Below, in pieces: positions 22,585 through 50,742 of a stretch of DNA of 64,000 bases; the first letter of the stretch is position 1, and each line of letters opens with the position of its first letter. The translations under genes were made by a program, and so were the position numbers. This DNA is from Planctomycetota bacterium (GTDB lineage Bacteria > Planctomycetota > UBA1135 > UBA2386): NCBI GenBank assembly GCA_020638655.1, contig JACKIC010000011.1, positions 40,890 through 104,889 on the forward strand. The letters are read 5' to 3'. Under the pieces are notes generated by a model that had not been told where the DNA came from, made no database searches, and saw nothing but the letters and a program-made list of their open reading frames with translations.

Positions 22585-22616
22585 CGCGGCCGGCGCGCCT
22601 GCATGATGCCACCCTC

Positions 22617-28332: not shown

Positions 28333-28350
28333 GCGCTCGCTCGCCCGAGA

Positions 28351-28579: not shown

Positions 28580-28612
28580 GGCAAGACGCCCTAGCGAGGG
28601 CGCATTCGCACC

Positions 28613-35200: not shown

Positions 35201-36220
35201 GGTTCGGTGTGGGTCCAGGACCCGGCCGACTTCGTCGGCGACGCGATGCACGACCACGACCCGATCGCCCTGCCGCTGCTGGTCGACTTCAAGGTCTTCC
35301 CGGACAGCGCCGCCAACGGCATCGCCGCGGGCGTCAACAACTTCCAGGTCGCCATGATGGGCCCGCCCAGCTACGGCTTCCCGGGCATCCCCGGCGGCTA
35401 CTACGACCGCCAGGGTGCGGGTTGCGGCGGCACGCCGCCGTGGCCGCGCTCGCGCGTCCAGGCGACCGGTGGTGAGGACATCATCTCGGGCGCGACGATC
35501 CTGATCGACCCGGCCAATCAGCTGATGGCCCAGTCGAGCACGCTCAAGGACGCCGGCCTCGGCAACGCCACGCGTGCCCTGTTCAGCGCCCCTCCGGGTG
35601 ACGGCATGGTGCACTGGGCGCAGGCCGACTTCGTGCGCAAGGTCTCGACCGTGACGATCGGCTTCTTCGACTCGCTGCAGCCGCAGCGCGCGCAGCTGGT
35701 CACGTTCGACGGCTCGGGCACGGCCTCGATCAACGCGACCAACGGCTTCCCGGATCTGCTGACGCTCGATCCGACCCTGCGCATCCGCGACCTCGTCGTG
35801 CAGCTCGACCCGCCGCAGAGCCGGCAGCCGGCTGGCACCTCGGTGGTCGTCGAGATCCGCGGCGCCGAGGACTTCGACAACTCGGGCAATCTCTACAACC
35901 CGAGCTTCGACCAGGCGTCCCAGACCCCGGACGACACGTTCGACGGTCGCGGCAACCTGCTCAACGTCAACTACGCCTGCGAGGCCTACCGCTACTCGCA
36001 GTCGAACCAGCCGGGCAACATCCCGCGCATCAACGCCACGCAGCTGACCCGCTACGTGACCGAGGACCAGCTGGCGCTGATCCGCAGCCCGGCCACGGGC
36101 CTGCTGCCGCGCTTCCTGAACCTGCGCCTGGTGATGACCAACAATGTCGACGTGTCGCCGGCGCTGTCGCCGTCGCTGCGCAGCATGAGCGTGGTCTACA
36201 AGCTCGAGCCGGGGCAGTAA
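32270..36220 (+). CDS. giant predicted lipoprotein C (family 1), paralogue of A
   Basis: 1316 aa with lipobox 'LVAATAC'. Blocks shared with A include 'VPRNAAIKLNFS', 'AGLPASSDNVTANIRVA', 'IRDFRSGNLND', 'LDVEQMYWSP' and 'VLDLAGNAVD'. Confidence 0.85.
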   Translation: MKQPTFRSRQFGSRALPFALALVAATACGGPKSVGSLSQDADRPTLLSVQLGRLVDVYSYQRIDPTNGDRRDRFNRRLTLVAENLVINPNIESQSLFDAAGEELPGANFEFRTFSKSVGHEELVILWDDRAGPEAERYQAALQIAQAGLTELAPSYRNQNTQTRPIPIVPRNAAIKLNFSSPVKADEAFFGVNPSAIQLLEFKGDPAVVDPVNAFRILPYRPIPQGSTIVLDTTILGGEGANGLTVAGLPASSDNVTANIRVAIPVRGAVAPSFYVREDAVAELNGVDSAGRNSVIRDFRSGNLNDGVAGRLRESEPPMIVGSLPMGITEIDTVNNVITINKRLHFVPVRGRFPFVDGPLEQSGIPAGPFSVPISRPLRTGDILTQTLQVQMPDGSIESVELRAEILHNLEVGTVIGDQNLPRLGRVENGQGGSDQGERLSVVRVRVASLEAGRDSLGRMHSFEASSLPNGRDCVLRARYYDEVAYVGSTTEFVSDRDWRHEFVRIDPTPSGAVQPATQVSPNASIAVEFTKPLDLDQVDNTDNFLVTNTSILTESFAVQMGDAKRATARIVPTRLTDLAGDGTVLRLQPPMGFFHNTGTPETYAVHVRLGGAGVLDLAGNAVDIFGDLANPSDSWSVDFSLDAQALTNRVGWHTYTMTSEDEDGSLPGSVDMFGQYRLQDGRLFAAAGVRFSRTADNQNLATISRIHRGECWDPDFDPTVGSPQGVPAAPLDGAGLPHPGLLYWQPRMFDQIAPPNVPSVYEYYQQLPQNVGRVVEPHHPNGSRLQMRYLEDDFSLSYRQPSEFGLDVEQMYWSPFNDETVYYDVFDRYTMSLAHTARRADVRFTLIPGDSSAMPPVPPGCLFNCPSMNSGLSSVFADNVLPGTQEVPVFEDKVYSINPNQAFRSPLNVKYVPYPRFDRSYTWRDSRLVTVDNAGNVIGLGGAEQPGAPQPNNDTTANIDSPWIASVPDPDFVNVGGSVWVQDPADFVGDAMHDHDPIALPLLVDFKVFPDSAANGIAAGVNNFQVAMMGPPSYGFPGIPGGYYDRQGAGCGGTPPWPRSRVQATGGEDIISGATILIDPANQLMAQSSTLKDAGLGNATRALFSAPPGDGMVHWAQADFVRKVSTVTIGFFDSLQPQRAQLVTFDGSGTASINATNGFPDLLTLDPTLRIRDLVVQLDPPQSRQPAGTSVVVEIRGAEDFDNSGNLYNPSFDQASQTPDDTFDGRGNLLNVNYACEAYRYSQSNQPGNIPRINATQLTRYVTEDQLALIRSPATGLLPRFLNLRLVMTNNVDVSPALSPSLRSMSVVYKLEPGQ

Positions 36221-36267
36221 TGCCCGCAGCTGCGGTCCCCGGTGGGCCGCAGCACAACGGATCTGCG

Positions 36268-36308
36268 CGCGGCCGACTGCCTTGGGGCAGTCGGCCGCGT
36301 TCGTTTCC
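36268..36308 (+). terminator. strong intrinsic terminator after gene C
   Basis: Perfect 14-bp stem cgcggccgactgcc/ggcagtcggccgcg with loop ttgg, followed by ttcgtttcc. Confidence 0.8.
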
Positions 36309-36384
36309 AGGGCGTGTTCGCGAATGCGGAGCACTGTCGCTGCCGTGGCGTTAGCGTGTGCCCGGTTCGCCGTCGTCGTCTACG

Positions 36385-38250
36385 ATGGGCCCGCTGCAGT
36401 CCATGTCCTGTCCCCGTGCCATCCCCGCGCTGCTCGTGCCCCTGGGCCTCGCCCTCGCCGCGGGGTGCCACCGGTCGGCGCCCCCGGCCTTCGAGGTGAT
36501 GCACACCTCGCCCGTGCTGGGCGGTGAAGCCGGGCCGCTGCTGCTCAACGACACCATCACGGTCTACTTCTCGGCGCCCGTGTCGGCGCTCAGCGTGACG
36601 TCGGACTCGGTGCACGTCGTCGACGCGCGCGGCAACCAGGTGCCGGGCCAGCTGCGGGTGGGTGAGAACTGGGTGACCTTCGCGCCGCGACCGCCGCTCA
36701 CGGCGGGCCTCGTGGACGGTTCGTTCCAGCCGGGGGAAGCCTACGAACTGCGCCTGGCGGGGTATCCCCGTCCCGACGCGATCCGCGCGGTCGATGGCAG
36801 GCGGCTGTCGATCGGCCACGTGCTGCCGTTCCGGGCGGCGGACGTCGACCATCGCGAGGGGGGGCTGCCGGCACCGCTGCGACCGCTGGCCTCGGACCTG
36901 CCGCTGGTGCTGCGCGCCGCCGAGGCGCCGCAGGCGCTGCCCGTCGATGCCGCGGTCCTGCGTCTGCACTTCTCGTCGCCGCTGCTGCCGACCTCGGTGA
37001 CCCCGTCGGCGTTGGTGATCCAATCGCTGCGCGACATGGCCACCCTGACTCCGCGGCGGGTCAGGGCGGTGACCTCTGCGGTCGACCTCAACCCGGGCAG
37101 CAGCGTCGAGGTCGAACTCGGCGCGACCCCGGCCCGCGAGGATGGTGGATTCCTCGCGCTGCAGCCCGGTGACCTGATCAGCGTGTCGCTGCGCATGGAC
37201 GCGGATGGCCTGCGGGACTACCAGGGCAACACCGTGTTGCCGGCGCCGCCGCAGTTCTGGACGGTCGTGCCCGGGGCGACCGTGGCGCTGCTCGAACTCC
37301 CTGGCGCGGCGGAGTCGTTCGTCGACGAGGGCAGCCTCGAGCCGGGCTTCGAGGTGCGCGGCGGCGTGGTGCGGCCGCGCGTGCGCGTCGAGGCGGGCGA
37401 CGGCAGCCTGGGCGCGTTCCGACCGCAGCAGGACACCGTGCTGCGGCCCGGGGAACCATTCGACCGCGGTGACGGCGTCCAGGTCGCGAGTCGCGACGGA
37501 CGGTTCCCGTTCCGCCTCATCGAGGTACCCAGGGGCGTCACGGTGACGCTCGATTGTCGGGGCGGGCCGGTGCAGCTGACCGCTCTGGGCTCGGTGTCGA
37601 TCCTGGGCGAACTGGCGCTGCGTGGCGCGGCCGTGCCGCTCGCCGAACGGCAGCTCGCCCCCGTTCCCGCGGCCAGCCTGTTCGACCTCGGCGCGCCGCT
37701 GCTGCTCGCCGCCGGCGACGTGCACCTGTCGGGCCGCGTCGTCAGCGACGCCCCGGCCGAAGGCGACGCCACGCCGTTCGTGGTCGCCGCCGCCGGGCAC
37801 GTGCACCTGGGCGGCGAACTGCCGTTCCGCACGGTCCTGGCGGTGGAAGCGGCCCACGCGGGCGGCTCCGGGCCGGCGGTGCACGGTCCGCGCGGCCAGA
37901 CCCTGCTGCGCTCGGTCGAGTTCACCTACGGCCTGGCGCCGGGCGCCACCTGCGAGGCGCGCGGGTTCAGCGCCTGGCAGCAGCTGCCGGAAGGGCGCAT
38001 CGGCGGCGTCGTGCAGGTGCGCGACGCCGACGCCGAGCTGCGACTGGCGTGGCAGTCGACGCCGCCCGACGCGATCGTCACCGACGCGCCGGACCTGACG
38101 CCCGGGCGCACGGGCCGTCTGCAGACGTTGTTCGACGGGGAGCCCGTCACGATCGCCGAGCGCGCGTTCGTGCGCTTCGCCTTCGAGGCGAGCCTGCGCC
38201 ACGACCGTCGGCTGCCGTCGTTGCGCATGCTGCGCCTCGTCGCTCGCTGA
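36385..38250 (+). CDS. predicted lipoprotein D (shorter family-2 relative)
   Basis: ATG at 36385; alternative starts are GTG 36358 and ATG 36403. Lipobox 'LALAAGC'. 'NDTITVYFSAPVSALSVTSDSVHVVD' and 'FRLIEVPRGVTVTLD..ILGELALRG' align with B and E. Confidence 0.75.
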   Translation: MGPLQSMSCPRAIPALLVPLGLALAAGCHRSAPPAFEVMHTSPVLGGEAGPLLLNDTITVYFSAPVSALSVTSDSVHVVDARGNQVPGQLRVGENWVTFAPRPPLTAGLVDGSFQPGEAYELRLAGYPRPDAIRAVDGRRLSIGHVLPFRAADVDHREGGLPAPLRPLASDLPLVLRAAEAPQALPVDAAVLRLHFSSPLLPTSVTPSALVIQSLRDMATLTPRRVRAVTSAVDLNPGSSVEVELGATPAREDGGFLALQPGDLISVSLRMDADGLRDYQGNTVLPAPPQFWTVVPGATVALLELPGAAESFVDEGSLEPGFEVRGGVVRPRVRVEAGDGSLGAFRPQQDTVLRPGEPFDRGDGVQVASRDGRFPFRLIEVPRGVTVTLDCRGGPVQLTALGSVSILGELALRGAAVPLAERQLAPVPAASLFDLGAPLLLAAGDVHLSGRVVSDAPAEGDATPFVVAAAGHVHLGGELPFRTVLAVEAAHAGGSGPAVHGPRGQTLLRSVEFTYGLAPGATCEARGFSAWQQLPEGRIGGVVQVRDADAELRLAWQSTPPDAIVTDAPDLTPGRTGRLQTLFDGEPVTIAERAFVRFAFEASLRHDRRLPSLRMLRLVAR

Positions 38251-38477: not shown

Positions 38478-39455
38478 ATGTCGACGGTTGTTTTCGAGGT
38501 GGGGGCAGCCCTGCTCGGGGCCTGCGTAGGGTCCTTCCTCAACGTCGTCATCTACCGCCTGCCGCAGGAAGATCCCGCCAGACGATCGCTCGGCGGTCGT
38601 TCGCACTGCCCGCACTGCGGCGCGCAGATCCGCTGGTTCGACAATCTGCCCGTGCTCGGCTGGGTGCTGCTGCGCGGGCGCGGCCGCTGCTGCGGGCAGC
38701 GCATCGCGTTCCGCTATCCGCTCGTCGAACTGCTCACCGCGCTGCTGTTCCTCGCGGTGACGCTGTGGTCGCCGTGGAACCTGCCGATCACGATCGACGA
38801 CCTCGGCGGCCTGCACGTCGACACTGCGCGGGCGGTCGGCTACGGCCTGCACCTGCTGTTCGTCTCGGTGCTGGTCGCGTGCACGTTCATCGACTTCGAC
38901 AAGCAGATCCTGCCCGACGCGATGACCAAGCCGGGCATGGCGATCGGCGTGCTCGCCGGCATCTACCCGGGCATCGCCGGGCCGATCTCGCGCGATGCGT
39001 CGACGCCCTACGCGCTGCGCACGCTGCTCGCGAGCGTCGTCGGCCTGGCGGTCGGCGCCGGGGTCACGTGGGGCATCCGCTGGCTCGGCTCGCGCGTCTT
39101 CGGCAAGGAGGCGATGGGGCTCGGCGACGTCAAGTTCCTCGGCATGATCGGCGCGTTCCTCGGCTGGCAGGGCGCGCTGCTCACCCTGTTCCTGGGCTGC
39201 GTGGTCGGCGCCGTGGTCGGCGGTCTCGCGGCGCTGCGCGGCGGGCTGGGGCTGCGCATCCCGTTCGGTCCGTACCTCGCGCTGGGCGCGTTGATCGCGC
39301 TGTTCGCGCAGGACCACGTCTACGTCTTCTTGTTCGACACATGGCCGGAGTGGCAGCGGCGCAACCCGTCGTCACAGTTCCTGCTGCTCGGCATGGCCGT
39401 GTTGTCGTTGTTCGCGTTGTTCGTGCTCGTGCGCCGTGGGCGCCGCGCAGGATGA
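38478..39455 (+). CDS. pilD: prepilin peptidase (A24 family)
   Basis: 'GSFLNVVIYRLP', 'CPHCGAQIRWFDNLPVLGW', 'GRCCGQRI', 'FIDFD' and 'GLGDVKFLGMIGAFLGW' are present. Confidence 0.9.
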   Translation: MSTVVFEVGAALLGACVGSFLNVVIYRLPQEDPARRSLGGRSHCPHCGAQIRWFDNLPVLGWVLLRGRGRCCGQRIAFRYPLVELLTALLFLAVTLWSPWNLPITIDDLGGLHVDTARAVGYGLHLLFVSVLVACTFIDFDKQILPDAMTKPGMAIGVLAGIYPGIAGPISRDASTPYALRTLLASVVGLAVGAGVTWGIRWLGSRVFGKEAMGLGDVKFLGMIGAFLGWQGALLTLFLGCVVGAVVGGLAALRGGLGLRIPFGPYLALGALIALFAQDHVYVFLFDTWPEWQRRNPSSQFLLLGMAVLSLFALFVLVRRGRRAG

Positions 39456-39499
39456 TCCATTCGTCGTTTGCACCGATTCGATTCCGTTTGGGAGGCACC

Positions 39500-40144
39500 A
39501 TGATGTTCCGCAAGACACTCCTTCTCTTCGCCGCCGCAGCGATGACGCTGTTGCCGAGCTGCACGGCCCGTTACCAGGACATGCTTCGCGATCGCGATTC
39601 GCGCATCCGCGACCTCAACGGCGAGGTCGCGCGCCTGCGCGGCGAGAACGACGACCTGCAGCGCCGGCTCGCCTCGGCGGCGACCGTCACGCCGACGCCC
39701 GCCGCGGCCAAGCGCGACGACAGCGAGGTCAGCGACATCCAGCGCGACGTCGGTCCCGACGCCTACGTCGATCGCCGTCGCGGCCGCATCAGCATCGGCG
39801 TGCAGGACAAGGTGACCTTCGACTCGGGCAGCAAGACCCTCAAGGACTCGTCGCACTCCGTGCTACGCAACGTCGCGAACGTGCTCAAGGACAAGTTCGC
39901 GGGGCGGCGCTTCTTCATCGAAGGCCACACCGACACCGATCCGATCGTCAAGACCAAGGGGCTCTACCGCAACAACCGGCACCTGTCGTTCGAGCGCGCC
40001 GACTCCGTGGCGGCGTGGCTGATCAAGCAGGGTGTGCCGGAGTCCTCGATCGTGGTCGTCGCCTACGGCCAGTTCGATCCTCGCGACCCGAAGAACAAGG
40101 AAGCCAACCGCCGCGTCGAGATCGTCGTCGGCGACAGCCTCTGA
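39500..40144 (+). CDS. OmpA/MotB-domain lipoprotein with N-terminal coiled coil
   Basis: RBS GGAGG (39491-39495). Lipobox 'LLPSC', coiled coil 'IRDLNGEVARLRGENDDLQRRL', and OmpA C-like 'FFIEGHTDTDPI...NRHLSFERADSVAAWL...NRRVEIVV'. Confidence 0.8.
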   Translation: MMFRKTLLLFAAAAMTLLPSCTARYQDMLRDRDSRIRDLNGEVARLRGENDDLQRRLASAATVTPTPAAAKRDDSEVSDIQRDVGPDAYVDRRRGRISIGVQDKVTFDSGSKTLKDSSHSVLRNVANVLKDKFAGRRFFIEGHTDTDPIVKTKGLYRNNRHLSFERADSVAAWLIKQGVPESSIVVVAYGQFDPRDPKNKEANRRVEIVVGDSL

Positions 40145-40388
40145 GCGGGCTGGTCCTCCAGGGGAGTGCGGCCCGCGCGCGATGCGCCTACGGGGCCCGG
40201 CTGTGGCGTCAAGTCGCAGTTGGGCCCGGGTCCGCACGACGCAGTGCGGCTTCCCCCGGCCGCCGGGCCTGATATAACGAAGTGTCCCAGGTGCCACGGT
40301 TTCCGGCGGCTACCCCACCGGACTCCGCGGCGGCGGGCACATCGTTTCGCGCCCCGAACGGGGCGCTTCGTCCCCTCGGAGTGACCCA

Positions 40389-42422
40389 ATGGCCCATACA
40401 TCGGAGCAAGTCCGCAACGTCGCCCTGGTCGGGCACGGACATGCGGGCAAGACCGCCCTCCTCGACGCGATCGCGTTCCACCTCAAGCTCAGCTCGCGTC
40501 TTGGCAGCACCGCCGACGGCACCAGCCTGAGCGACATCGACGCCGAGGAGAAGGAGCGACGACAGACCCTGTCGGCGCACCTGTTCCAGCTGCCGATCGG
40601 CGACACGGTCTGCAACGTGTTCGACACGCCTGGGCACCCCGACTTCCTCGGTGAGGTGCTCGCGGCGATGGACGCGGTGGAGACCGCGCTGTTCGTCGTC
40701 AACGCCGCCAACCCGGTGACGTTCCATCTGCGCCACCTGTGGAAGCGCGCGGGTGACCTCGGCATCGGCCGCGCGATCGCGATCACGCACCTCGACCAGG
40801 ACAACACCGACTTCGAGGCGGTGGTCGAGGAGCTGCGCACGGCCTTCGGCCACGCGGTCGTGCCGGCGTCGTACCCCAACGCGACCGGGGCCGCCTTCAA
40901 GTCGGTTCACGACGTGACGCACCGCGAAGGCCCCAAGGCCGAGCAGTACCACGACATGATCGAGGAGGACGAGGCCGAGGTCGACGACACCTTGATGGAG
41001 CACTACCTCGAGACCGGCCACCTCGACGAGCACGAGTTCGAGGAGAACCTGCGCCGCGCGGTGGCGCGCGGCAACCTGGTCCCGGTGTTCGCGGTCTGCC
41101 CCAACCGCGGGCTCGGCCTCGAGCAGCTGCTCGAGTTCATCTCGCACCACTTCCCGTCACCCGTGTGCTTCGGCGCGCGCCCCGCCGGCGAGCCCGGCTC
41201 GGGCGCCTACGGGCAGCTCGTCGAGCCCGACGACGGGCCGTTCGTGGCCAAGGTGTGCCGCGTCGTGTCCGACCCGTACGTCGGGCGCCTGTCGGTGCTG
41301 CGTTGCCTGCGCGGCAAGCTGAGCAAGGACCAGAACGTCGTCGACGTGCGCACCGGGCAGAGCCACAAGGTCGCGCACCTCTACGCCGTGCACGGCAAGG
41401 ACACCAAGGAGATCGGCGAGGTCGTCGCCGGCGACCTGTTCGCGGTCGGCAAGATCGAGGACTTCCTGCTCGGCGACACGCTCACCGACGGCACCAGGCT
41501 CGAACTGCCGCGCGTCGCCTTCCCGGTGCCGACCTACTCGCGGCACATCTGGCCGAAGGCGCGCGGCGACGAGCAGAAGATCGGCCACGCGGTCGAGAAG
41601 ATCGGCATCGAGGACCCGACGTTCCTGCACGATCGCGACAAGGAGACCGGCGAGTTCCTGGTCACGGGCATGAGCCCGCTGCACCTCGACGTGCACTTCC
41701 AGCGGCTCAACCGTAAACACCACGTCGCGGTGGAGCACGGTCCGCCCACGATTCCCTACCGCGAGACGATCACGGCGCGCGCCGACGGCCATCACCGGCA
41801 CAAGAAGCAGAGCGGTGGCCGCGGCCAGTTCGCCGAGGTCTATCTGCGCGTGGCGCCCAAGCAGCACGGCGAAGGCTTCGAGTTCGTCGACTCGGTCGTC
41901 GGCGGCTCGATCCCGCGGCAGTTCATCCCCGAGGTCGAGAAGGGCGTGCGCAAGTTCCTGACCCGCGGCTCGCTGGCCGGCTTCCCCGTCGTCGACGTGC
42001 AGGCCGAGGTCTACGACGGCAAGTACCACGACGTCGACAGCGACCAGATCAGCTTCCAGCTGGCAGGCGAGCGGGCGTTCCTCGACGGCTTCTCCAAGGC
42101 GCGCCCGATCCTGCTCGAGCCGGTCATGGACGTCGAGATCCACGTGCCCGAGCGCTTCACGGGCGACGTCGCCGGCAACCTGTCCGGCGCGCGCGGCCGG
42201 CTGGCCGGCATGGAGGTGCACGAGGGCGTGCAGATGATCAAGGCGCACGTGCCGCTGGCATCGATGTTGGAATACTCGACACAGCTGCGCTCGATCACGG
42301 CCGGCGAGGGCACCTACACGATGCAGTTCGCGCACTACGAGCCGGTGCCACCGCACCTTCAGGCCGAGATCGTCAAGAACCGCAAGGCGGTCGTGGACCA
42401 GCACCACGGCGAGCACCGCTAG
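40389..42422 (+). CDS. elongation factor G family paralogue with non-canonical G1 and G4 motifs
   Basis: 677 aa. G1 is 'GHGHAGKT' and G3 is 'DTPGHPDF'. The domain IV tip 'GKYHDVDSD' is conserved. 'ITHLDQ' stands where NKxD is expected. Confidence 0.8.
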   Translation: MAHTSEQVRNVALVGHGHAGKTALLDAIAFHLKLSSRLGSTADGTSLSDIDAEEKERRQTLSAHLFQLPIGDTVCNVFDTPGHPDFLGEVLAAMDAVETALFVVNAANPVTFHLRHLWKRAGDLGIGRAIAITHLDQDNTDFEAVVEELRTAFGHAVVPASYPNATGAAFKSVHDVTHREGPKAEQYHDMIEEDEAEVDDTLMEHYLETGHLDEHEFEENLRRAVARGNLVPVFAVCPNRGLGLEQLLEFISHHFPSPVCFGARPAGEPGSGAYGQLVEPDDGPFVAKVCRVVSDPYVGRLSVLRCLRGKLSKDQNVVDVRTGQSHKVAHLYAVHGKDTKEIGEVVAGDLFAVGKIEDFLLGDTLTDGTRLELPRVAFPVPTYSRHIWPKARGDEQKIGHAVEKIGIEDPTFLHDRDKETGEFLVTGMSPLHLDVHFQRLNRKHHVAVEHGPPTIPYRETITARADGHHRHKKQSGGRGQFAEVYLRVAPKQHGEGFEFVDSVVGGSIPRQFIPEVEKGVRKFLTRGSLAGFPVVDVQAEVYDGKYHDVDSDQISFQLAGERAFLDGFSKARPILLEPVMDVEIHVPERFTGDVAGNLSGARGRLAGMEVHEGVQMIKAHVPLASMLEYSTQLRSITAGEGTYTMQFAHYEPVPPHLQAEIVKNRKAVVDQHHGEHR

Positions 42423-42607
42423 CCGCAGATCCCCGGGCCGGCGGCACCGCGCCGCCGGCCGCGCAAGCGCCCGTGCCGCCGGGCCGCGCCGCCCGCCGCC
42501 TCTCCGATCGAGGCGCCGCCGGGCAAGGCCTCAATGCGACAGGCCCCGTCGACCGATAGACCGCTCCGGGTCCGGATCCATCCGCACCCTCACAGGAGCG
42601 CGTCAAC

Positions 42608-43699
42608 ATGGTCTCGATGGAAGAACTGCTGAACCTCATGGTTCAGCGCGGCGGGTCCGACTTGCACATCTCGGTGGGTTCTCCTCCCAAGATTCGCATC
42701 GACGGCAAGCTCGTCGACACGGAGCACGAACCGCTGATGCCCGAGCAGACCAAGAAGTTGATCTACTCGGTGATCGGTCCCGATCAGGTCGCCAAGCTCG
42801 AGAAGCAGCTCGAAATCGACTTCTCGTTCGGCGTCGCCAACCTGGGTCGTTTCCGCACCAACGCGTTCGTGCAACGCGGCTCGATCGCCGCGGTGCTGCG
42901 CGTGATCCCGTTCGAGGTCTTCGACTTCGAGACGATCGGCCTGCCCAAGAAGGTCTGCGAGTGGATCTGCAACCTGCCGCGCGGCCTGGTGCTGTGCACC
43001 GGCGCGACCGGCTCGGGCAAGTCGACGACGCTCGCGTCGATGATCAACTACGTCAACGAGACGCGGCAGAGCCACATCATCACGATCGAGGACCCGATCG
43101 AGTTCCTGCACCGGAACAAGGGCTGCCTGATCAACCAGCGTGAGGTCGGCGGCGACACCCTGGGCTTCGACAAGGCGCTCAAGTCGGTGCTGCGTCAGGA
43201 CCCCGACGTCGTGCTGGTCGGCGAAATGCGCGACCTCGAGACGATCGAGGCGGCGCTGACGCTCGCCGAGACGGGCCACCTGACTTTCGCGACCCTGCAC
43301 ACGTCCGACGTGTGCCAGACCGTGAACCGCATCGTCGACGTCTTCCCGGCGCACCAGCAGCAGCAGATCCGCACGATGCTGTCGTTCACGCTGCAGGCCG
43401 TCGTCTGCCAGCAGCTGGTGCCGCGCATCCACGGCAAGGGCCGCGTGCTCGCCGCCGAGATCATGATCGTCACGCCCGCGATCCGGGCGCTGATCCGCGA
43501 CAACAAGGCGCACCAGATCATGTCGACGATCCAGACCGGTGGCGCGCAGGGCATGCGCACCATGAACCAGTCGCTGTTCGACCTCTACCGGGCGGGGACC
43601 ATCAGCTACGAGGACGCGATGGAGCACTGCGGTGACCACGCCGACTTCCAGCGCCTGATGGAACGTGCCGGCACCGGTGGCGCCCGCGCGACGCGGTGA
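42608..43699 (+). CDS. pilT: type IV pilus retraction ATPase PilT
   Basis: 'GGSDLHI', Walker A 'GATGSGKSTT', 'DPDVVLVGEMRD', 'TGHLTFATLHT' and the PilT signature 'AIRALIRDNKAHQI' are present. Confidence 0.9.
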   Translation: MVSMEELLNLMVQRGGSDLHISVGSPPKIRIDGKLVDTEHEPLMPEQTKKLIYSVIGPDQVAKLEKQLEIDFSFGVANLGRFRTNAFVQRGSIAAVLRVIPFEVFDFETIGLPKKVCEWICNLPRGLVLCTGATGSGKSTTLASMINYVNETRQSHIITIEDPIEFLHRNKGCLINQREVGGDTLGFDKALKSVLRQDPDVVLVGEMRDLETIEAALTLAETGHLTFATLHTSDVCQTVNRIVDVFPAHQQQQIRTMLSFTLQAVVCQQLVPRIHGKGRVLAAEIMIVTPAIRALIRDNKAHQIMSTIQTGGAQGMRTMNQSLFDLYRAGTISYEDAMEHCGDHADFQRLMERAGTGGARATR

Positions 43700-43702
43700 T
43701 CC

Positions 43703-45415
43703 ATGAGTCAATTCGCGAAGAAGCTGCGCGGCATCCTCGAGAAGGCGGGCAAGCTCGACTCCGCCACCGGGGACACTCTGCTCGCCGAGGCGCAGAGTGA
43801 GAAGCGGCCGTTCACGGAGGTGCTGGTCAAGAAGGGCGTCGCCACCGAGCACGAGCTGCTCGCGTTGATCGCCAAGGCGGCCAACGTGCCGCCGATCGAC
43901 CTGACCAAGCTGATCGTCAACAAGGAGGTGCTGGAGTCCGTGCCCGAAGACGTGGCGCGTGAGTACTGCATCTTCCCGGTCGACCGGATCGGCAACATCA
44001 TCACCGTCGCGGTCGCCAACCCGTTCGACGTGCTCAAGCTCGACGACATCCGCATCATCACGGGTTGTCAGCTGCGCACCGTCGTCAGCACCGCCGAGGA
44101 GATCGAGAAGATCCGCGGCAAGGGTTACCAGAAGGAGAGCGAGTCGGTCGACGGCATCCTCGGCTCGTTCGACGACTCCGACGTCGAGCTCAAGGAAGCC
44201 GACATCGACGACGAGAGCACCGACCTGTCGGCGATCAGCGACGAGGACTCGCCGGTCGTCAAGCTCGTCAACAAGATGATCCTGGACGCCTGCAACACCG
44301 GCGCGTCCGACATCCACATCGAGCCGTTCGAGAAGAAGGTGATCATCCGCTACCGCAAGGACGGCTGCCTCTACGAGGCGATGACGCTGCCCAAGCGCAT
44401 GCAGAACAACATCACCTCGCGCATCAAGATCATGTCCAAGCTGGACATCGCCGAGAAGCGCAGGCCGCAGGACGGCAAGTTCCAGATGAAGATCGGCCAC
44501 AAGGCGGTCGACTTCCGCGTGTCGATCCTGCCGGTGGTCTGGGGCGAGAAGACCGTCTTCCGCATCCTCGACTCCAGCAACCTCGCCCTCGACATCAAGT
44601 CGCTGGGCTTCGAGAAGCAGCCGATGGAGGACTACCTGTGGGCGTGTGCGCAGCCCTACGGCATGATCCTCGTCACCGGTCCGACGGGTTCTGGTAAGTC
44701 GACGACGCTGTACTCGGCGGTCAAGCACATCGCCGCGCCCGACATCAACCTGGTCACGGTCGAGGACCCGGTCGAATACCAGCTCGAGGGCATCAACCAG
44801 GTGCCGGTCAATCCCAAGGCCGGCCTGACGTTCGGCGGCGCGCTGCGTTCGATCCTGCGTCAGGACCCCGATGTGGTGCTGCTCGGCGAGATTCGCGACC
44901 AGGAGACCCTCGAGATCGCGGTCAAGGCCGCGCTCACGGGCCACCTGGTGCTCAGCACGCTGCACACCAACGACGCGCCGTCGACCATCACCCGCATGGT
45001 CGACATGGGTATGGACCCGTTCATGGTCGCCAGCTCGACGCTGCTGATCTGCGCGCAACGTCTCGGCCGCAAGCTGTGTCCGAACTGCAAGAAGCGCGTC
45101 GAGATCCAGAAGGACGTGCTGATCCGCCTCGGCTTCGCCGAGGAGGACTTCGCGGCCGGCCACGACATGGAGTTCTACGAGCCCGTCGGCTGCCCGCGCT
45201 GCAACCAGGGCTACAAGGGCCGCTTCGCGCTGCTCGAGACGATGCGCATGACCGAGGGCGTCAAGCGCATGGTCGTCGACCGCGCGCACATCGCCGACAT
45301 CAAGAAGCTCGCGCTGAGCGAAGGCATGTTGACGCTGCGACGCTGCGGCCTGCTGAACGCGATGCGCGGCAAGACCAGCCTGCAAGAGGTCGAGTCGTCG
45401 ACCATGGCGGACTGA
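43703..45415 (+). CDS. pilB: type IV pilus assembly ATPase PilB (GspE family)
   Basis: 570 aa. N-terminal T2SSE_N-like region, Walker A 'GPTGSGKSTT', 'TGHLVLSTLHTND' and a tetra-Cys 'CPNCKK...CPRCNQ' are present. The start lies 3 nt after the pilT stop. Confidence 0.9.
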   Translation: MSQFAKKLRGILEKAGKLDSATGDTLLAEAQSEKRPFTEVLVKKGVATEHELLALIAKAANVPPIDLTKLIVNKEVLESVPEDVAREYCIFPVDRIGNIITVAVANPFDVLKLDDIRIITGCQLRTVVSTAEEIEKIRGKGYQKESESVDGILGSFDDSDVELKEADIDDESTDLSAISDEDSPVVKLVNKMILDACNTGASDIHIEPFEKKVIIRYRKDGCLYEAMTLPKRMQNNITSRIKIMSKLDIAEKRRPQDGKFQMKIGHKAVDFRVSILPVVWGEKTVFRILDSSNLALDIKSLGFEKQPMEDYLWACAQPYGMILVTGPTGSGKSTTLYSAVKHIAAPDINLVTVEDPVEYQLEGINQVPVNPKAGLTFGGALRSILRQDPDVVLLGEIRDQETLEIAVKAALTGHLVLSTLHTNDAPSTITRMVDMGMDPFMVASSTLLICAQRLGRKLCPNCKKRVEIQKDVLIRLGFAEEDFAAGHDMEFYEPVGCPRCNQGYKGRFALLETMRMTEGVKRMVVDRAHIADIKKLALSEGMLTLRRCGLLNAMRGKTSLQEVESSTMAD

Positions 45416-45453
45416 GCACGGGAATACGACGGTAGCAACAGGCAAGGGGAATC

Positions 45454-46701
45454 ATGGCCACGAAGTTCAAGTACGAAGCGAAGGACGCCTCCGGCAAGAC
45501 CGTCAAGGGTTCGGTGGCGGCGTCGAGCCAGTCCGAAGCGGTCGCCGACTTGCGTCGTCGCAACCTGACCCCGGTGGACGTGAAGAAGGCCGGTGGCCTG
45601 TTCGGCCTCGGCGGCGGCGGCGGCGGTGGGCCGAAGGGGCGCAAGAAGGCGACCCGGTCCAGCGTGCAGAAGGGGGAGCTCGAAGTCTTCACCCGCCAGC
45701 TGTCGACGATGCTCAGCGCCGGTATCCCGATGCTCGAGGCGCTCGAGATCCTCGCCGACCAGGCCGAGTCTCCTGGCTTCGCCTTCTGCCTCGACAAGGT
45801 CGTCGAGGACATCCGCTCGGGCTCCGACCTCAGCAAGGCGATGGAGCCGCACAAGCGGGTCTTCTCGCACATCTACGTCAGCATGATCCGCGCCGGTGAG
45901 GTCTCGGGTCAGATTGACATCATCCTGCAGCGCCTCGCCGACTATCTCGAGGCGGCGGCGCACCTGCGCAGCGAGATCAAGTCGGCGATGACCTACCCGG
46001 TCATCTCGCTGTTCTTGGTCATCGGCATCGCGTCGTTCCTGATGATCGGCATCGTGCCGTCGTTCAAGCCCGTGTTCGACTCGCTCGAGGTCGAACTGCC
46101 GGGTCTGACCGTGTTCATCATGGACATCGCGTTCTTCATGCGCGACTACTGGTACCTGATCTTCGGCGGCATGTTCGGCGCGTTCGTCGGCATCAAGGCG
46201 CTGTGCAAGACGCCCAAGGGCGCCTACGCCAAGGACGCGCTGATGCTGCGCGTGCCGGTGTTCGGCGTGCTGTTCAAGAAGGTCGCCCTGTCGCGCTTCG
46301 CGCGCACGTTCTCGACGCTGGTCAAGAGCGGCGTGCCGATCCTCGGCGCGATGGAGATCGTCTCCGACACGGCGGGCAACCTGGTGATCTCCGGCATCGT
46401 CGACCGCGCGCGCGACAGCGTGCGCAACGGTGAGAGCCTGTCCGACCCGTTCATGAAGTCGACGGTGTTCCCGCCGATGGTCACCAAGATGATGGCGATC
46501 GGTGAACGTTCCGGCGCGCTCGACGCGCTGCTCGAGAAGATCGCCGAGTTCTACGACCAGCAGGTCGAGGCCGAGGTCAAGGGACTCACGTCGATGATCG
46601 AGCCGATCATGATCGCGATCATGGGTGTGATCGTGGGCGGCATCGTGCTCGCGGTGTTCCTGCCGATCTTCAAGCTGCAGGAGAAGCTCTCGGGCGGCTG
46701 A
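45454..46701 (+). CDS. pilC: type IV pilus platform protein PilC (GspF family)
   Basis: 415 aa. Duplicated GspF modules ('FTRQLSTMLSAGIPMLEAL', 'FARTFSTLVKSGVPILGAM') and 3 TM segments are present. Confidence 0.9.
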   Translation: MATKFKYEAKDASGKTVKGSVAASSQSEAVADLRRRNLTPVDVKKAGGLFGLGGGGGGGPKGRKKATRSSVQKGELEVFTRQLSTMLSAGIPMLEALEILADQAESPGFAFCLDKVVEDIRSGSDLSKAMEPHKRVFSHIYVSMIRAGEVSGQIDIILQRLADYLEAAAHLRSEIKSAMTYPVISLFLVIGIASFLMIGIVPSFKPVFDSLEVELPGLTVFIMDIAFFMRDYWYLIFGGMFGAFVGIKALCKTPKGAYAKDALMLRVPVFGVLFKKVALSRFARTFSTLVKSGVPILGAMEIVSDTAGNLVISGIVDRARDSVRNGESLSDPFMKSTVFPPMVTKMMAIGERSGALDALLEKIAEFYDQQVEAEVKGLTSMIEPIMIAIMGVIVGGIVLAVFLPIFKLQEKLSGG

Positions 46702-46747
46702 TCCGCCCGGGTGACCGGCGAACCACGAAGGCAAAGGGAGAAGGATC

Positions 46748-47626
46748 GTGAACGAAGCTCAAGGACGCGCGCTGCTCTACGGCGGCGCGATGGTGATCGT
46801 CGTCGGACTGTGCGCGGCGAGCATGCTCTACCGGCCGGAGCCGGACGTCTACACGCTGCTCAGCAGCGCCGACGTGCAGCTGCGCATGGCCTACGCGATC
46901 CCGGCGGTCGACAAGCAGGGCGTATCGCTGTCGGCGCGCGACGAGATGATCGCCGACGCGCAGAAGAACCTGGACCTGGTCGAGCAGATCAAGCCCGGCA
47001 TGGCCTGCACGGCCGAGTTCCGGGGCTTCGTGCACATGCTGCGCGGCGAGCCCAAGCAGGCAGCGGCCACCTACGCCGAAGCCCGCCGCTGCCAGGACTG
47101 CACGGCCGAGCAGGCCGACGTGCTGACCTTCAACCAGGCGCGCATGCTGGCCGAGGCCGGCGACATCGACGCCGCCCTGCAGGTGTTCTCGGTCAACGCG
47201 GCGCGGCTGGATTCCCGGTTCGGGACGCAGCGCAACCTCGAGGAAGCGTCGATGCTGCGCCGGGTCGGGCGGGTGCAGGAGGCCGAGCAGCGCGTCGACG
47301 GCGTCGTCGCCGGCGGCGCGGTGGATGCGATGTCATGGCTGCAAGCCGGTCGCGAGTACCTCGAGCTCGGCAAGAGTGACAAGGCGGAGCGCGCCCTGAC
47401 GTCGGCACAGGCCGATGTGCCAATTGCGAACTACTACCTCGCCCGCCTCAAGTTGGTGGCTGGCGATGTCGATAGAGCTCTGGCGTTGCTGGAAACGGCG
47501 ACCGCCGCGGTGCCCGGAGATGCACGGCGTCTGCTTCGTGAAGAAGCGGAGGTCTGGCAGGGAATCGCGACGGACGTTCGCTTCGAGCAGCTCCAGACGC
47601 CGCGCGCTGCGACCCCTGGTCGCTGA
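46748..47626 (+). CDS. membrane-anchored TPR-like protein in the pilus cluster
   Basis: GTG start with a GGGAGAAGGA RBS. TM segment 'LLYGGAMVIVVGLCAASMLY' is followed by helical repeat segments ('YYLARLKLVAGDVDRALALLE'). Confidence 0.6.
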   Translation: MNEAQGRALLYGGAMVIVVGLCAASMLYRPEPDVYTLLSSADVQLRMAYAIPAVDKQGVSLSARDEMIADAQKNLDLVEQIKPGMACTAEFRGFVHMLRGEPKQAAATYAEARRCQDCTAEQADVLTFNQARMLAEAGDIDAALQVFSVNAARLDSRFGTQRNLEEASMLRRVGRVQEAEQRVDGVVAGGAVDAMSWLQAGREYLELGKSDKAERALTSAQADVPIANYYLARLKLVAGDVDRALALLETATAAVPGDARRLLREEAEVWQGIATDVRFEQLQTPRAATPGR

Positions 47627-47722
47627 GCGGGGCGAGAAGGAAGAGAAAGGGGAACCACACAAAGGGGAACCGATCGGCGGCCACGTCGGCCGTCGACCAG
47701 AACAGGTTGTACGGGAGAAAAC

Positions 47723-48409
47723 ATGTCCAAGCGGGAACAGGGCTTCACACTCATCGAGCTGATGATCGTCGTGGCGATCATCGCCATCATCGCGTCGATC
47801 GCGATTCCGAACCTCCTCAGCGCGCGCCTCAACGCCAATGAATCGGCCGCGATCGCCACGCTGAAGAACATCTCGTCGGGCCAGTCGCAGTGCCAGGCCT
47901 CGGGCGTCATCGACGTCAACGGCAACGGCTCGGGCGAGTACGGCTTCTTCGGCGAGCTGTCGGGCCGCACCGCGGTCCGCAACAGCACGCAGCGCATCAG
48001 CCCGGCGGTGCTCTCGAGCGCCTTCGGCAACGTCGCCGCGGCCCGCGTCTCGCGCTCGGGCTACCTCTTCCAGATGTTCCTGCCGGACGCCACGGCCCAG
48101 GGTATCGAGGAAGATGCGACCGGTGGTGACCCGGACAACGGCCAGGGTGTCGACCCGGGCCAGGCCGAGACGCTGTGGTGCTGCTACGCCTGGCCGCAGG
48201 TCCAGGGCAACAGCGGCAAGCGCACGTTCTTCGTGAACCAGGCCGGTGACGTGCTCGCCACCAACGGTGCGGTCGTCGCCTACAACGGCACCACCACGCC
48301 GGTGACCTTCGACGTCGCGTTCGCCGCGACGAGCTCGGCCGCGATGGGTGTGCCCGTCGCCGCCAACACGCTCGGCCAGGACGGCAACACCTGGGTCGTC
48401 GTGCAGTGA
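47723..48409 (+). CDS. pilA: type IV pilin / pseudopilin
   Basis: Class III signal 'MSKREQG|FTLIELMIVVAIIAIIASIAIPNLL' with Glu at +5. 228 aa. RBS GGGAG. Confidence 0.9.
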   Translation: MSKREQGFTLIELMIVVAIIAIIASIAIPNLLSARLNANESAAIATLKNISSGQSQCQASGVIDVNGNGSGEYGFFGELSGRTAVRNSTQRISPAVLSSAFGNVAAARVSRSGYLFQMFLPDATAQGIEEDATGGDPDNGQGVDPGQAETLWCCYAWPQVQGNSGKRTFFVNQAGDVLATNGAVVAYNGTTTPVTFDVAFAATSSAAMGVPVAANTLGQDGNTWVVVQ

Positions 48410-48547: not shown

Positions 48548-49603
48548 ATGTCGGCCAAGACCAAGTCCACCGGTGCCAAGGGCGCCGGCCCCAAGACCTC
48601 CGTCGACCCGCTCGCGAGCCTGATGGCGGCGGGGGAGCTGCCGCGCGAGCCCGCGACCACGGCGGTCCCGGCGGCCACCGTCGGCGAGGAGGGCGCGGCG
48701 CCGCGCCGCGTGCAGAGCCTGTCGGTCGTGATTCCGGCGCGCAACGAGTCGCTGAACCTGCCCGGGCTGCTCGACGAAGTGAACGCCGCGCTCGCGGCCA
48801 GCGAGGTGCCGTTCCGCGAGGTGATCGTCGTCGACGACGGCTCGAGCGACGACAGCGGCAAGATCGCGGCCGCGGCGGGCGCGCGCGTCGTGCGCCACGC
48901 GCACGGGCTCGGCAACGGCGCCGCGGTCAAGCGCGGCATCCGCGAGGCCAAGGGCCAGTGGATCCTGATGCTCGACGGCGACGGCCAGCACCCGCCGGGC
49001 GAGCTCGCCGCGATGTTGTCGATGATCGAGGGCTCGGGCTACGACATGGTGGTGGCCTCGCGCGGCGGTCGCGGCGGCAGCCTGCACCGCAACTTCGCCA
49101 ACCAGGTCTACAACCGCCTCGCGAGCTACGTGTCGGGTTACCACATCCCGGACCTGACCAGCGGCTACCGGCTGCTGCGCGCCGACGTCGCCAAGGACCT
49201 CGTCTGGCTGCTGCCCAACACGTTCAGCTATCCGACGACGATCACGATGTCGATGCTGCGGGGCGGCTGGTCGGTCGGCTTCCATCCGTTCGCCGTGCGC
49301 CAACGCCAGGGCAAGAGCCACGTGCGCCTGTTCGCCGACGGCAGCCGCTTCTTCCTGATCATCCTGCGCATCGCGACGATGTTCGCGCCGCTGCGCGTGT
49401 TCCTGCCGGTGTCGCTGGCGACCGCCGCGCTGGGCATCGGCTGGTACGCCTACACCTGGTTCACCGAAGGGCGCTTCACCAACATGGCGGTGCTGCTGCT
49501 GGGCCAGGCGACGCTGCTGTTCGCGCTGGGCCTGATCGCCGAGCAGATCGCGGCGCTGCGCTTCCAGGGGCTGTCGCGCACCAGCGATCGGGGCGGCGCG
49601 TGA
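48548..49603 (+). CDS. GT2 polyprenol-phosphate glycosyltransferase (GtrB/ArnC/Ppm1-like) with C-terminal TM helices
   Basis: The ATG at 48548 was chosen because the terminator lies inside the longer ORF. 'LSVVIPARNESLNL', 'VIVVDDGSSDDS' and 'ILMLDGDGQHP' are present, plus two C-terminal hydrophobic helices. Confidence 0.8.
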   Translation: MSAKTKSTGAKGAGPKTSVDPLASLMAAGELPREPATTAVPAATVGEEGAAPRRVQSLSVVIPARNESLNLPGLLDEVNAALAASEVPFREVIVVDDGSSDDSGKIAAAAGARVVRHAHGLGNGAAVKRGIREAKGQWILMLDGDGQHPPGELAAMLSMIEGSGYDMVVASRGGRGGSLHRNFANQVYNRLASYVSGYHIPDLTSGYRLLRADVAKDLVWLLPNTFSYPTTITMSMLRGGWSVGFHPFAVRQRQGKSHVRLFADGSRFFLIILRIATMFAPLRVFLPVSLATAALGIGWYAYTWFTEGRFTNMAVLLLGQATLLFALGLIAEQIAALRFQGLSRTSDRGGA

Positions 49604-50742
49604 GCGACAGCGTGCTGTTCTGCGGGGCCTGGGACGAAGGCCCCGGTTACCCGCGCACCACCAGCCTGCAGAACGCCGTCGCCGCCGCCGGTTTCGAGGT
49701 GCGGCGCTGCCGCGTGCCGTCGCTCGGGCGCGACAAGCAGCGCGTGCTGCGCCAGCCGTGGCTGTGGCCGCAGACGGCCTGGCGGTCGCGCGCGCGCCGG
49801 CGTCAGCTGGTCGAGCAACTGCGGCAGGAGCTGCTGCGGGAGCCCCCGCGCTGCATCGTCGTGCCGTACCCGGGGCATCACGTGGTCGGCGACGTGCGCC
49901 GCACGACCGACGTGCCGGTCGTGCTCGACCTGTTCCTGTCCGCCTACGACACCGTGATCGAGGACCGTCGCCTCGCCGAGCCCGGCTCACTGGCGGCTGC
50001 GTACCTCGCCGGCATCGATCGGCGCGCCTGCGAGGCCGCCGACCTGGTTCTGCTCGACACCCCCGAGAACGCTGCCTATGTCGCCGCGCTGACCGGGCTG
50101 CCGGCGGAGCGCTTCGCCTGGCTGCCGGTCAACGACCCCGACGCGCCAGCGCAGCCCGCGCCGTGGCGGGGGGCCGCCAACGGCGCGCTGCAGCTGCTGT
50201 TCTTCGGCACCGGCGTGCCGCTGCACGGGCTGAGCACCCTGCTCGCCGCCGTCGCCAGCGTGCCGCGTGTGCACCTGACCCTGGTCGGCGGCACCGCCGC
50301 CGATCGCGCCGAGGCCCAGCGCCTGTTGCCGGGACGGTTGCGCCTCGAACCCGAGTTCGTAGATCGGCAGCGGCTCGCGCAGCTGCTGGACGAGTGCCAG
50401 CTGGTCGCCGGCGTGTTCGGTGAGTCCGGCAAGGCTCAGCGCGTCGTGCCGTTCAAGGTCGTGCACGCGCTGGCCGCGGGGCGGCCGGTGCTGACCGCGG
50501 ATACGCCGGCGGTGTGCCGTTGGCTCGAGGGCAGCGGCGCGGTGTTCCTCACGCCGGCGGCGAACGTCGGCGCGCTCGCCGGCATGTTGCGGCAACTCGG
50601 CAACGACCCGCAGCAGGTGCGGGCCGCCGCCGCCGCTGCGCGGCCGGCCTACGACCGGACCTTCTCGCTCGACGCCTGTCGCGACCGTTGGGCGCAGTTG
50701 GTCGCGGGTCTCGACGGCGCCGCCCTGGAGTGCGTGGGATGA
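49600..50742 (+). CDS. GT-B fold glycosyltransferase (GT4-like)
   Basis: The GTG overlaps the upstream stop (GTGA). The C-terminal half, 'LLFFGTGVPLHGL..LTLVGG...FGESGKAQRVVPFKVVHALAAGRPVL', resembles the GT1/GT4 nucleotide-sugar domain. Confidence 0.5.
   Translation: MSDSVLFCGAWDEGPGYPRTTSLQNAVAAAGFEVRRCRVPSLGRDKQRVLRQPWLWPQTAWRSRARRRQLVEQLRQELLREPPRCIVVPYPGHHVVGDVRRTTDVPVVLDLFLSAYDTVIEDRRLAEPGSLAAAYLAGIDRRACEAADLVLLDTPENAAYVAALTGLPAERFAWLPVNDPDAPAQPAPWRGAANGALQLLFFGTGVPLHGLSTLLAAVASVPRVHLTLVGGTAADRAEAQRLLPGRLRLEPEFVDRQRLAQLLDECQLVAGVFGESGKAQRVVPFKVVHALAAGRPVLTADTPAVCRWLEGSGAVFLTPAANVGALAGMLRQLGNDPQQVRAAAAAARPAYDRTFSLDACRDRWAQLVAGLDGAALECVG

Follow-up and report, generated by a model that had tools for sequence, protein, structure and literature searches.

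A probable half of a type IVa pilus with conserved OmpA-domain and EF-G-like passengers in a planctomycete genome

The window analysed here is a stretch of 64,000 nucleotides (64 kb) from a Planctomycetota bacterium (assembly GCA_020638655.1, contig JACKIC010000011.1, positions 40,890 to 104,889). It carries the type IV pilus genes pilD, pilT, pilB, pilC and pilA, together with genes for an OmpA-domain lipoprotein, a paralogue of elongation factor G (EF-G) and a tetratricopeptide repeat (TPR) protein. We conclude, with a probability of roughly 0.7, that this region is the pilD/pilTBC/pilA half of an ordinary type IVa pilus, and that its passengers are long-standing residents of the locus and not obligate parts of the machine. 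The alignment and outer-membrane half, i.e. pilM, pilN, a PilO-domain protein and a PilQ-type secretin, would be supplied from another contig of the same assembly, C12. In most relatives the two halves are part of one neighbourhood of 40-50 kb, which the source genome has split by a rearrangement.

All eight genes of the order pilD-OmpA-EF-G-pilT-pilB-pilC-TPR-pilin, which the initial annotation had read from the DNA letters, were recovered on a single strand with Pfam and NCBIfam models (Table 1). The short gaps described there hold for pilT and pilB, which are 3 nt apart, but not for the EF-G paralogue, which is flanked by 244 and 185 nt; from pilD to pilA the gaps are 44, 244, 185, 3, 38, 46 and 96 nt. 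As expected for a type IVa system, PilB, PilT, PilC, a prepilin peptidase and a pilin with a short signal are all present. The best NCBIfam model for pilB is TIGR02538 at 665.1, just below its equivalog cut-off of 675.65, with GspE at 546.8, and the pilT orthologs are 60-89% identical over the order. The pilA leader of 7 residues is of class III type, with G-1, F+1 and E+5, and pilA orthologs follow pilC in relatives. Judging from these families, PilD would cleave and methylate prepilins, PilB and PilT would power extension and retraction on the PilC platform, and PilA would be the fibre subunit. PilD probably also serves type II secretion-like systems elsewhere in the genome, because tblastn with PilD against the whole assembly returned only the self-match, leaving it as the sole prepilin peptidase found.

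The assembly totals 5.18 Mb over 12 contigs, with a completeness of 82.8%, and the window is about 70% G+C. The lack of pilM, pilN, pilO, pilP, pilQ and further prepilins in the 64 kb, as pointed out in the initial annotation, was borne out. Genome-wide family searches and a Pfam scan of 45 open reading frames (ORFs) of the window gave no secretin, PilM, PilN, PilO or PilP in it, all Secretin, PilM_2 and PilO matches being on other contigs. A six-frame search with a prepilin regular expression revealed no second prepilin, the sole match on contig C3 being the pilin itself. Four secretins are encoded in the assembly, none of them in the window, and three of them accompany type II secretion-like genes (C9, C10 and C7). 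The fourth, on C12, contains STN, N0, Secretin_N and Secretin (2.1e-36) domains; its best NCBIfam model is PilQ, TIGR02515, at 222.6, under the cut-off of 284.35, and we scored it as PilQ. Preceding it on the same strand are a 199-residue gene in the PilN position and a gene for a 474-residue PilO-domain protein (2.8e-10), beyond which the contig ends. A PilM fragment, residues 283-329, is encoded by the terminal 141 nt of C12 and is 83% identical to the PilM of the closed relative G007. Two closed genomes of the same family, G007 and G122, hold the row intact, composed of PilM (340 residues; PilM_2 at 2e-52 and 1e-55, respectively), a gene of 184-205 residues, the PilO-domain gene and the secretin. 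The genome-wide search proposed earlier thus places pilM (as a fragment), a gene in the pilN position, pilO and pilQ on C12, and for minor pilins it yields about 15 prepilin-like ORFs outside the window contig, four of which are near a PilM-like/FHA/TPR cluster on C11. Three LysM-bearing frames were found (C10, C12 and C8), none of them in the window. As far as the 83% assembly shows, the pilus system appears to be complete.

These results bear on the earlier proposal that the OmpA-like and TPR proteins substitute for missing envelope components. The proposal is unsupported, as no component that these proteins would need to replace appears to be missing, the rest of the machine being present on C12. 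Two findings had been named that would jointly refute it, namely a standard set of pilMNOPQ genes elsewhere and an order of genes that is not conserved in relatives; the former holds, but the latter does not, the order being strongly conserved as described below. Split-locus type IVa pili are well known from Pseudomonas aeruginosa, with its pilABCD, pilMNOPQ and pilTU loci, and from the pil cluster of Myxococcus xanthus. The system of the window shares with them the core PilD, PilB, PilT and PilC, a pilin with a class III signal, PilM, a PilO-domain protein and a PilQ-type secretin. It differs in being interleaved with housekeeping genes in a phylum-wide neighbourhood, in the length of its PilO-domain protein (474 residues) and of its pilin (228 residues), and in the lack of a Pfam PilN or PilP match.

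To describe the conservation of the locus, we drew a sample at class level, which gave 150 genomes of one order in eight families (labelled f1-f8), making 151 with the source genome. An ortholog of the EF-G paralogue, scored at E < 1e-120, or at 41-47% identity where a contig end truncated the match, occurs in 122 of the 150 (123 of 151 with the source genome). Sixty order-level loci with such an ortholog were compared, and pilD, OmpA and the EF-G paralogue are contiguous in 58 of them, an arrangement far beyond chance; the exceptions are L140, where the contig ends, and L103, which has another gene upstream. The genes pilT-pilB-pilC come next after the EF-G paralogue in 43 of the 60, and homologs of the giant lipoproteins stand 5' of pilD in nearly all. 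The whole series from pilD to pilA is also present in both of two close public loci. Outside the order, we compared 40 pilD loci from other Planctomycetota families. The OmpA gene adjoins pilD in 19 of these and the EF-G paralogue occurs in 14; in nine the paralogue is followed by pilT-B-C (no pilB was detected in two of the nine), three have pilD-OmpA-pilT without the paralogue, and about 17 have pilD alone. The non-canonical passengers noticed in the window are thus conserved, and recur elsewhere in Planctomycetota. A public search with the EF-G paralogue returned 80 loci, of which 78 are from other phyla; with no pil genes nearby, these are uninformative on synteny.

Composite intervals assembled from 12 genomes, with the 57% G+C locus L205 read by tblastn, reveal the wider arrangement. 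A single same-strand neighbourhood from pilM to pilA, 40-50 kb in length, is present in 10 of the 12. It begins with pilM-pilN-pilO-pilQ, RNase E/G, L21, L27, Obg, a second pilT (and a gene of 414 residues), and continues with coaX, a GTPase gene, pyrB, the giant lipoproteins where present, pilD, OmpA, the EF-G paralogue, pilT-B-C and pilA. Of these ten genomes, four come from outside the order and the other six from five of its families, and it is only in this order that giant lipoproteins are found within the neighbourhood. The PilQ ortholog is usually on the same contig as the EF-G paralogue, 21-38 kb apart.

In the source genome and its nearest relatives this neighbourhood is broken between the second pilT and the 414-residue gene. 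On C12 (including L010:6846-7970), the segment with Obg and the second pilT is now continuous with a third EF-G-like gene and the S10 operon, and in the window (18799-20790) rpsL-rpsG are now followed by the 414-residue gene. The two joins appear to be products of a reciprocal rearrangement, the relatives having Obg, the second pilT, the 414-residue gene and coaX in a row. Such a rearrangement explains why a pilT and an EF-G-like gene adjoin twice in the source genome. The junction with rpsG seen in the window is a rearrangement confined to part of family f1.

The passengers and the pilus do not share a common fate across these genomes. A PilQ ortholog is present in 0 of 32 f3 genomes and in 0 of 1 f6 genome, versus 115 of 117 genomes of the other families. 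All 13 of the f3/f6 loci compared lack pilTBC-pilA, yet retain the giant lipoproteins, pilD, OmpA and the EF-G paralogue, and in five f3/f6 genomes the best PilB and PilT matches have 40-47% identity, the level of the source genome's own paralogues. That the two pilus halves have been lost together supports their belonging to one machine. Across the 151 genomes, which as relatives are not independent observations, 93 have both the EF-G paralogue and PilQ, 30 the paralogue only, 23 PilQ only and five neither; hence the paralogue is found in 80% of PilQ-positive and 86% of PilQ-negative genomes. In all five genomes without the paralogue that were examined, pilT comes directly after OmpA and the cluster is otherwise intact, and a congener of one of these keeps the paralogue. 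In four f1 genomes, pilT-B-C has been relocated as a unit to a contig other than that of the EF-G paralogue. From these patterns of presence and order, we argue that the OmpA lipoprotein and the EF-G paralogue are probably not obligate pilus parts, and have been gained and lost independently of the pilus.

The initial annotation also suggested that the machinery serves or displays the giant lipoproteins encoded next to it. This reading is not supported: f3 and f6 have lost pilTBC-pilA and PilQ while keeping the giant lipoproteins, and outside the order the pilD-OmpA-EF-G trio occurs without them. Since the trio is found there without giant lipoproteins, it predates them. A related possibility is a functional module that joins the giant lipoproteins to pilD, OmpA and the EF-G paralogue, for example to anchor or produce these lipoproteins, the pilus genes being incidental. 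The 13 of 13 f3/f6 loci in which these four stay together are in keeping with such a module, but in G235, G221, G160 and G245, all from outside the order, pyrB or other genes lie directly 5' of the trio and no giant-lipoprotein matches are found; moreover, PilD acts on prepilin signals and not on lipoprotein signals. We therefore regard this possibility as very unlikely.

The OmpA lipoprotein has a signal peptide with a lipobox Cys, its N-terminus reading MMFRKTLLLFAAAAMTLLPSC, followed by a heptad-like, charge-rich stretch resembling a coiled coil and a C-terminal OmpA_C domain, which matches PF00691 at 67 bits, well over the gathering cut-off of 27.2. A signal peptide, the Cys and the coiled coil were detected automatically in 71 of 77 OmpA orthologs, and the remaining six are alike by eye. 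No NCBIfam equivalog reached its cut-off for this protein, Pal (TIGR02802) scoring 39.2 vs 125.35. It is one of two PF00691 proteins in the genome. Most likely it is a membrane-to-peptidoglycan tether with a role like that of Pal or Lpp. Like Pal and other OmpA_C tethers of the outer membrane, it combines the Cys of a lipoprotein signal with an OmpA_C domain at the C-terminus; unlike Pal, it has about 80 residues of coiled coil between the anchor and the domain, and its gene is a neighbour of pilD with no tol genes adjacent.

Such a tether could have a more specific task, as a peptidoglycan anchor for PilD-dependent machines generally, both the type IVa pilus and type II secretion-like systems, which would account for its staying with pilD also in genomes that have lost the pilus. 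Comparable anchoring elsewhere is provided by TsaP or FimV (LysM), the AMIN domains of PilQ and GspA/B, and OmpA_C binds peptidoglycan in MotB, Pal and TssL. The NCBIfam similarities of the lipoprotein are to peptidoglycan-binding OmpA_C proteins, and pilus-less genomes retain type II secretion-like ATPases. The pairing itself is tight: the two genes are separated by 44 nt in the window, and adjoin in 58 of the 60 order-level loci, in all five loci without the EF-G paralogue and in 19 of the 40 from other families. However, the other 21 of these 40 have no OmpA gene, no equivalog assignment was obtained, and the presence of just two OmpA_C proteins in the genome fits a general tether. The neighbourhood also holds plainly unrelated housekeeping genes, and we know of no pilus or secretion system with a protein of this architecture. 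A dedicated anchor thus seems rather unlikely, and an ordinary pilus with resident passengers is preferred.

The TPR protein was found by tblastn only in f1 and f5 (27-57% identity), and relocates with pilTBC in G064. Its N-terminus is membrane-helix-like, with a Cys in the atypical context VGLC, and no NCBIfam pilotin model of the PilF/PilW/Tgl type matched at E <= 1e-5. It is possible that it is a pilus accessory protein.

The EF-G paralogue has the domains of a translation factor, but is not a canonical EF-G. It fails the test for canonical EF-G (EFG I) with TIGR00484 at 515, where the cut-off is 659.4, and passes NF009891 (PRK13351.1-1, elongation factor G; 631.8 vs 597) and NF009381 (736.6 vs 583); it also fails NF009377 (EF-G2; 550.6 vs 890) and NF058620 (476.6 vs 1000). 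The canonical EF-G of the genome, encoded on C6, scores 939.6 vs 659.4 for TIGR00484 and has 788 bits to Thermus EF-G. Against solved structures, the paralogue scores about 420 bits to canonical EF-G, 380 to Thermus EF-G-2 (1WDT) and 170.5 to mitochondrial EF-G2 (7l20).

The divergence is concentrated in the GTPase centre. The copy of the window has GHGHAGKT as G1, RRQTLS as G2, DTPGH as G3 and THLD as G4, and has lost G5. We compared 74 locus-linked orthologs with the 72 sequences of other phyla from the public search that match over nearly the full length, which are almost all canonical EF-G. The orthologs keep GxxxxGKT at G1, where 69 of the 72 canonical sequences have AHIDAGKT, and have lost the RGITI of G2, which appears as RGITIT in 71 of the 72. 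At the last residue of G3, where the canonical sequences read DTPGH (71/72), Tyr is found in 52 and His in 19 of the 74. The first position of G4 is T in 67, S in six and N in one, with D kept in 73, vs NKMD in 72 of 72, and G5, which is CGSA, CGTA or CGSS in 66 of 72 canonical sequences, is lost. The domain IV loops HKKQ[ST]GGxGQF and DGK[YF]HxVDS of the orthologs are, by contrast with this decay, almost as in canonical EF-G. All 74 form one clade with support of 1.0 (FastTree). We infer from these residues that the paralogue still acts on the ribosome, with its GTPase chemistry relaxed or lost in most lineages.

Two known proteins offer precedents. The EF-G2 of Bacteroides thetaiotaomicron (fusA2) is likewise an accessory copy beside a canonical EF-G, with five domains and a non-consensus GTPase centre, and is described as enabling GTP-independent translation and as being induced on carbon limitation (PMC10294740). 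The paralogue of the window differs in belonging to a separate Planctomycetota clade, outside that family by the NF058620 score given above. Thermus thermophilus EF-G-2, of the EFG II type (1WDT), is also a divergent second EF-G in which domains 1-3 are least conserved and the RGITI of G2 is relaxed. As set out in the subfamilies of Margus et al. 2011 (PMC3150367), however, EFG II keeps G1, G3, G4 (NKxD) and G5, whereas the window-type paralogue has T-[HKR]-x-D as G4 and no G5, and its score to 1WDT (380 bits) is lower than that to canonical EF-G (420). Most likely, the paralogue would bind the ribosome as a translocase and hydrolyse GTP poorly or not at all, in the manner of Bacteroides EF-G2.

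Two other identities were considered and rejected. The paralogue is not a displaced fusA of the str operon, as might be supposed from rpsL/rpsG 21 kb upstream: in 10 of the 12 composite intervals rpsL/rpsG are not upstream, and pilD is preceded instead by pyrB, coaX, the second pilT and Obg, back to pilMNOQ. Nor is it a recycling factor of the spdEFG2/mtEFG2 type, its 170.5 bits to 7l20 comparing with about 420 to bacterial EF-G; spdEFG2 is assigned to Planctomycetes in the accounts of PMC3150367 and PMC4342817.

Three side observations concern related sequences. A contig of 6.4 kb from a metagenome-assembled genome (MAG) labelled Candidatus Omnitrophota, L025, encodes a protein 39% identical to the paralogue over its full length, the highest value among the other-phyla loci; no pil genes were detected on this contig. 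One of the 72 other-phyla sequences has paralogue-like G motifs (GHAHSGKT, RQASIN, DTPGF). The third EF-G-like gene of the source genome, of 662 residues (C12:281392-283380; L010:4793-6781, minus strand), occupies the fusA position immediately ahead of the S10 operon. It is very divergent, with a canonical G domain (AHIDAGKT, DTPGH, NKLD), and it has no Pfam EFG_IV match, non-conserved domain IV loops and scores under every NCBIfam cut-off.

A different role for the paralogue would be that of a regulatory GTPase recruited to the pilus motor or to pilD. In Myxococcus, small GTPases position PilB and PilT, and both the altered nucleotide-binding motifs and the place between OmpA and pilT, held over the phylum, could be read in this way. 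The distribution speaks otherwise, since the paralogue has been lost from 23 PilQ-positive genomes, is kept in 30 PilQ-negative ones and has been cleanly excised from intact pilus clusters in five of five cases. Moreover, the domain IV loops are its most conserved part; in EF-G these loops touch the decoding centre, which points to the ribosome and not to a membrane motor. No gaps in the cluster are longer than the two on either side of the paralogue (244 and 185 nt). We consider such a regulator highly improbable.

A more speculative scenario, to which we give only a low probability, would combine the ribosomal role with the location. The paralogue may be an alternative EF-G that Planctomycetota have retained from before the split of their classes, with a largely decayed GTPase centre, in which the catalytic His is replaced by Tyr in most lineages, and with intact decoding-centre tips. 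Expressed together with pilD, the OmpA tether and the pilus motors within one surface-attachment or low-energy programme, it would carry out slow, GTP-free translocation, and the neighbourhood would be a regulatory unit rather than a historical accident.

Several points weigh against taking the region as half of an ordinary pilus with dispensable passengers. Such deep conservation of gene order on a single strand is commonly taken as a sign of a functional link, and pilD-OmpA is the only junction for which no break was seen within the order. The paralogue of the window itself keeps the catalytic His. The Pfam searches for PilN and PilP gave no match, PilN and PilP being placed by position only; the PilP model matched in no control genome either. 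Presence and absence were scored from MAGs (80-96% complete) and single-protein queries, and some absences may be assembly gaps. Finally, a consensus scan of transcription signals gave no promoter-like site and a single terminator-like site (minus strand), which is below the numbers in shuffled sequences, such a scan being uninformative on operon structure in a genome of 70% G+C.

The coordinates of the cluster and its flanks are collected in Table 1.

Table 1. Pilus cluster and flanking genes in the window, with the models or features that identify them
Feature	Position	Strand	Evidence
414-residue gene, coaX, GTPase, pyrB, four giant lipoproteins (5' context)	19546..38250	+	Pfam
pilD, prepilin peptidase/N-methylase	38478..39455	+	A24_N_bact 6.7e-32, Peptidase_A24 1.9e-19
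OmpA-family lipoprotein, 214 residues from ATG 39500 (TTG 39488 is an alternative start)	39500..40144	+	PF00691 1.9e-18
EF-G paralogue, 677 residues	40389..42422	+	Pfam GTP_EFTU, EF-G_D2, EFG_III, EFG_IV, EFG_C
pilT, retraction ATPase	42608..43699	+	TIGR01420 485.4 (cut-off 319.1)
pilB, extension ATPase, MshEN N-terminal domain	43703..45415	+	T2SSE 1.1e-135, MshEN 9.4e-15
pilC, inner-membrane platform protein	45454..46701	+	T2SSF 4.4e-69, two stretches
TPR protein, one N-terminal hydrophobic helix	46748..47626	+	TPR_16, TPR_14, TPR_2
pilA, major type IVa pilin, 228 residues	47723..48409	+	N_methyl 8.2e-10; leader MSKREQG followed by FTLIEL
GT2, GT1 and TPR protein genes 3' of pilA	48548..52613	+	Glycos_transf_2, Glyco_trans_1_4, TPR_19

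The ORF 39436-40272 of the mechanical list is an Arg-rich wrong frame without a Pfam match, the true OmpA frame ending at 40144. The GT2, GT1 and TPR genes 3' of pilA accompany it in families f1, f5, f7 and f8, and are possibly involved in glycosylation of the pilin or the envelope. Directly 3' of the stop codon of the EF-G paralogue, at 42423-42470, is a G+C-rich inverted repeat, GGCCGGCGG ... CCGCCGGCC, with no T tract, which may mark a transcript end or form a stabilising hairpin. Two observations concern the cluster in other genomes. In the f4 loci L126-L129, the gene in the pilB slot is only 25-28% identical to the PilB of the window by tblastn, with PilT at 69% and PilC at 63-64%. In f4 and several other classes, pilD is matched by two separate tblastn hits, a sign that the gene may be split or carry a large insertion.

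Further pilus-related genes were observed elsewhere in the assembly. On C11 (L012:3-13120), genes for an FHA protein, a 540-residue PilM-like protein, a 903-residue TPR protein, prepilin-like proteins, a LamG-domain protein and a 1451-residue protein are clustered, and may be a minor-pilin/tip-adhesin locus or a separate pilus-like system. C5 (L014:8158-12708) has three traffic ATPases in a row (PilB/GspE-like, PilT-like and PilB/GspE-like) with no adjoining platform or pilin gene; the last of them matches the MshE-type c-di-GMP-binding motif, and the trio is retained in genomes without the window-type pilus. A pilA paralogue on C1 (around 413840-414460; L020:8836-9456, minus strand) is 71% identical to the pilin of the window from residue 29 on. 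Its leader is missing, as is the beginning of the N-terminal helix, and it is preceded by stop codons. It could be a pseudogene, or else a silent cassette for a pilin.

Contigs from RNA libraries of four runs in two studies, wastewater and soil metatranscriptomes in which DNA carry-over is possible, include exact matches to the EF-G paralogue, pilT, pilB, pilA and the TPR gene; for pilC the matches reach at least 95%. One such contig (47403-47779) runs from the last part of the TPR gene into the beginning of pilA. Of the 32 contig pieces listed, out of a larger set, none bridges the OmpA/EF-G or EF-G/pilT gaps, which is not evidence against co-transcription. At most, these contigs demonstrate presence in RNA libraries. 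The k-mer depth of pilA (window 47442-48409) is much higher in all four runs, reaching about 200 in one, in which the other genes of the cluster are mostly below 10; contig depth is not a valid measure of expression, and conserved pilins of relatives may add to the depth of pilA.

In full-text literature, supplements aside, we found no paper tying the EF-G paralogue or the OmpA lipoprotein to planctomycete pilus clusters, nor a description of the 40-50 kb neighbourhood of pilus and housekeeping genes. Pilus genes are listed in the species description of a Gemmataceae genome (PMC7397252).

A standard type IVa machine in a planctomycete would leave no need for replacement envelope parts. The 40-50 kb neighbourhood mixes pilus genes with ribosome-related ones (RNase E/G, L21, L27, Obg, the GTPase and the EF-G paralogue), and this mixture has survived over much of a phylum. 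The repeated clean losses of the EF-G paralogue and of the pilus provide natural controls for experiments. The Planctomycetota-specific EF-G clade, in which the G motifs decay while domain IV is fixed, is a candidate, next to the Bacteroides case, for translocation that does not depend on GTP hydrolysis.

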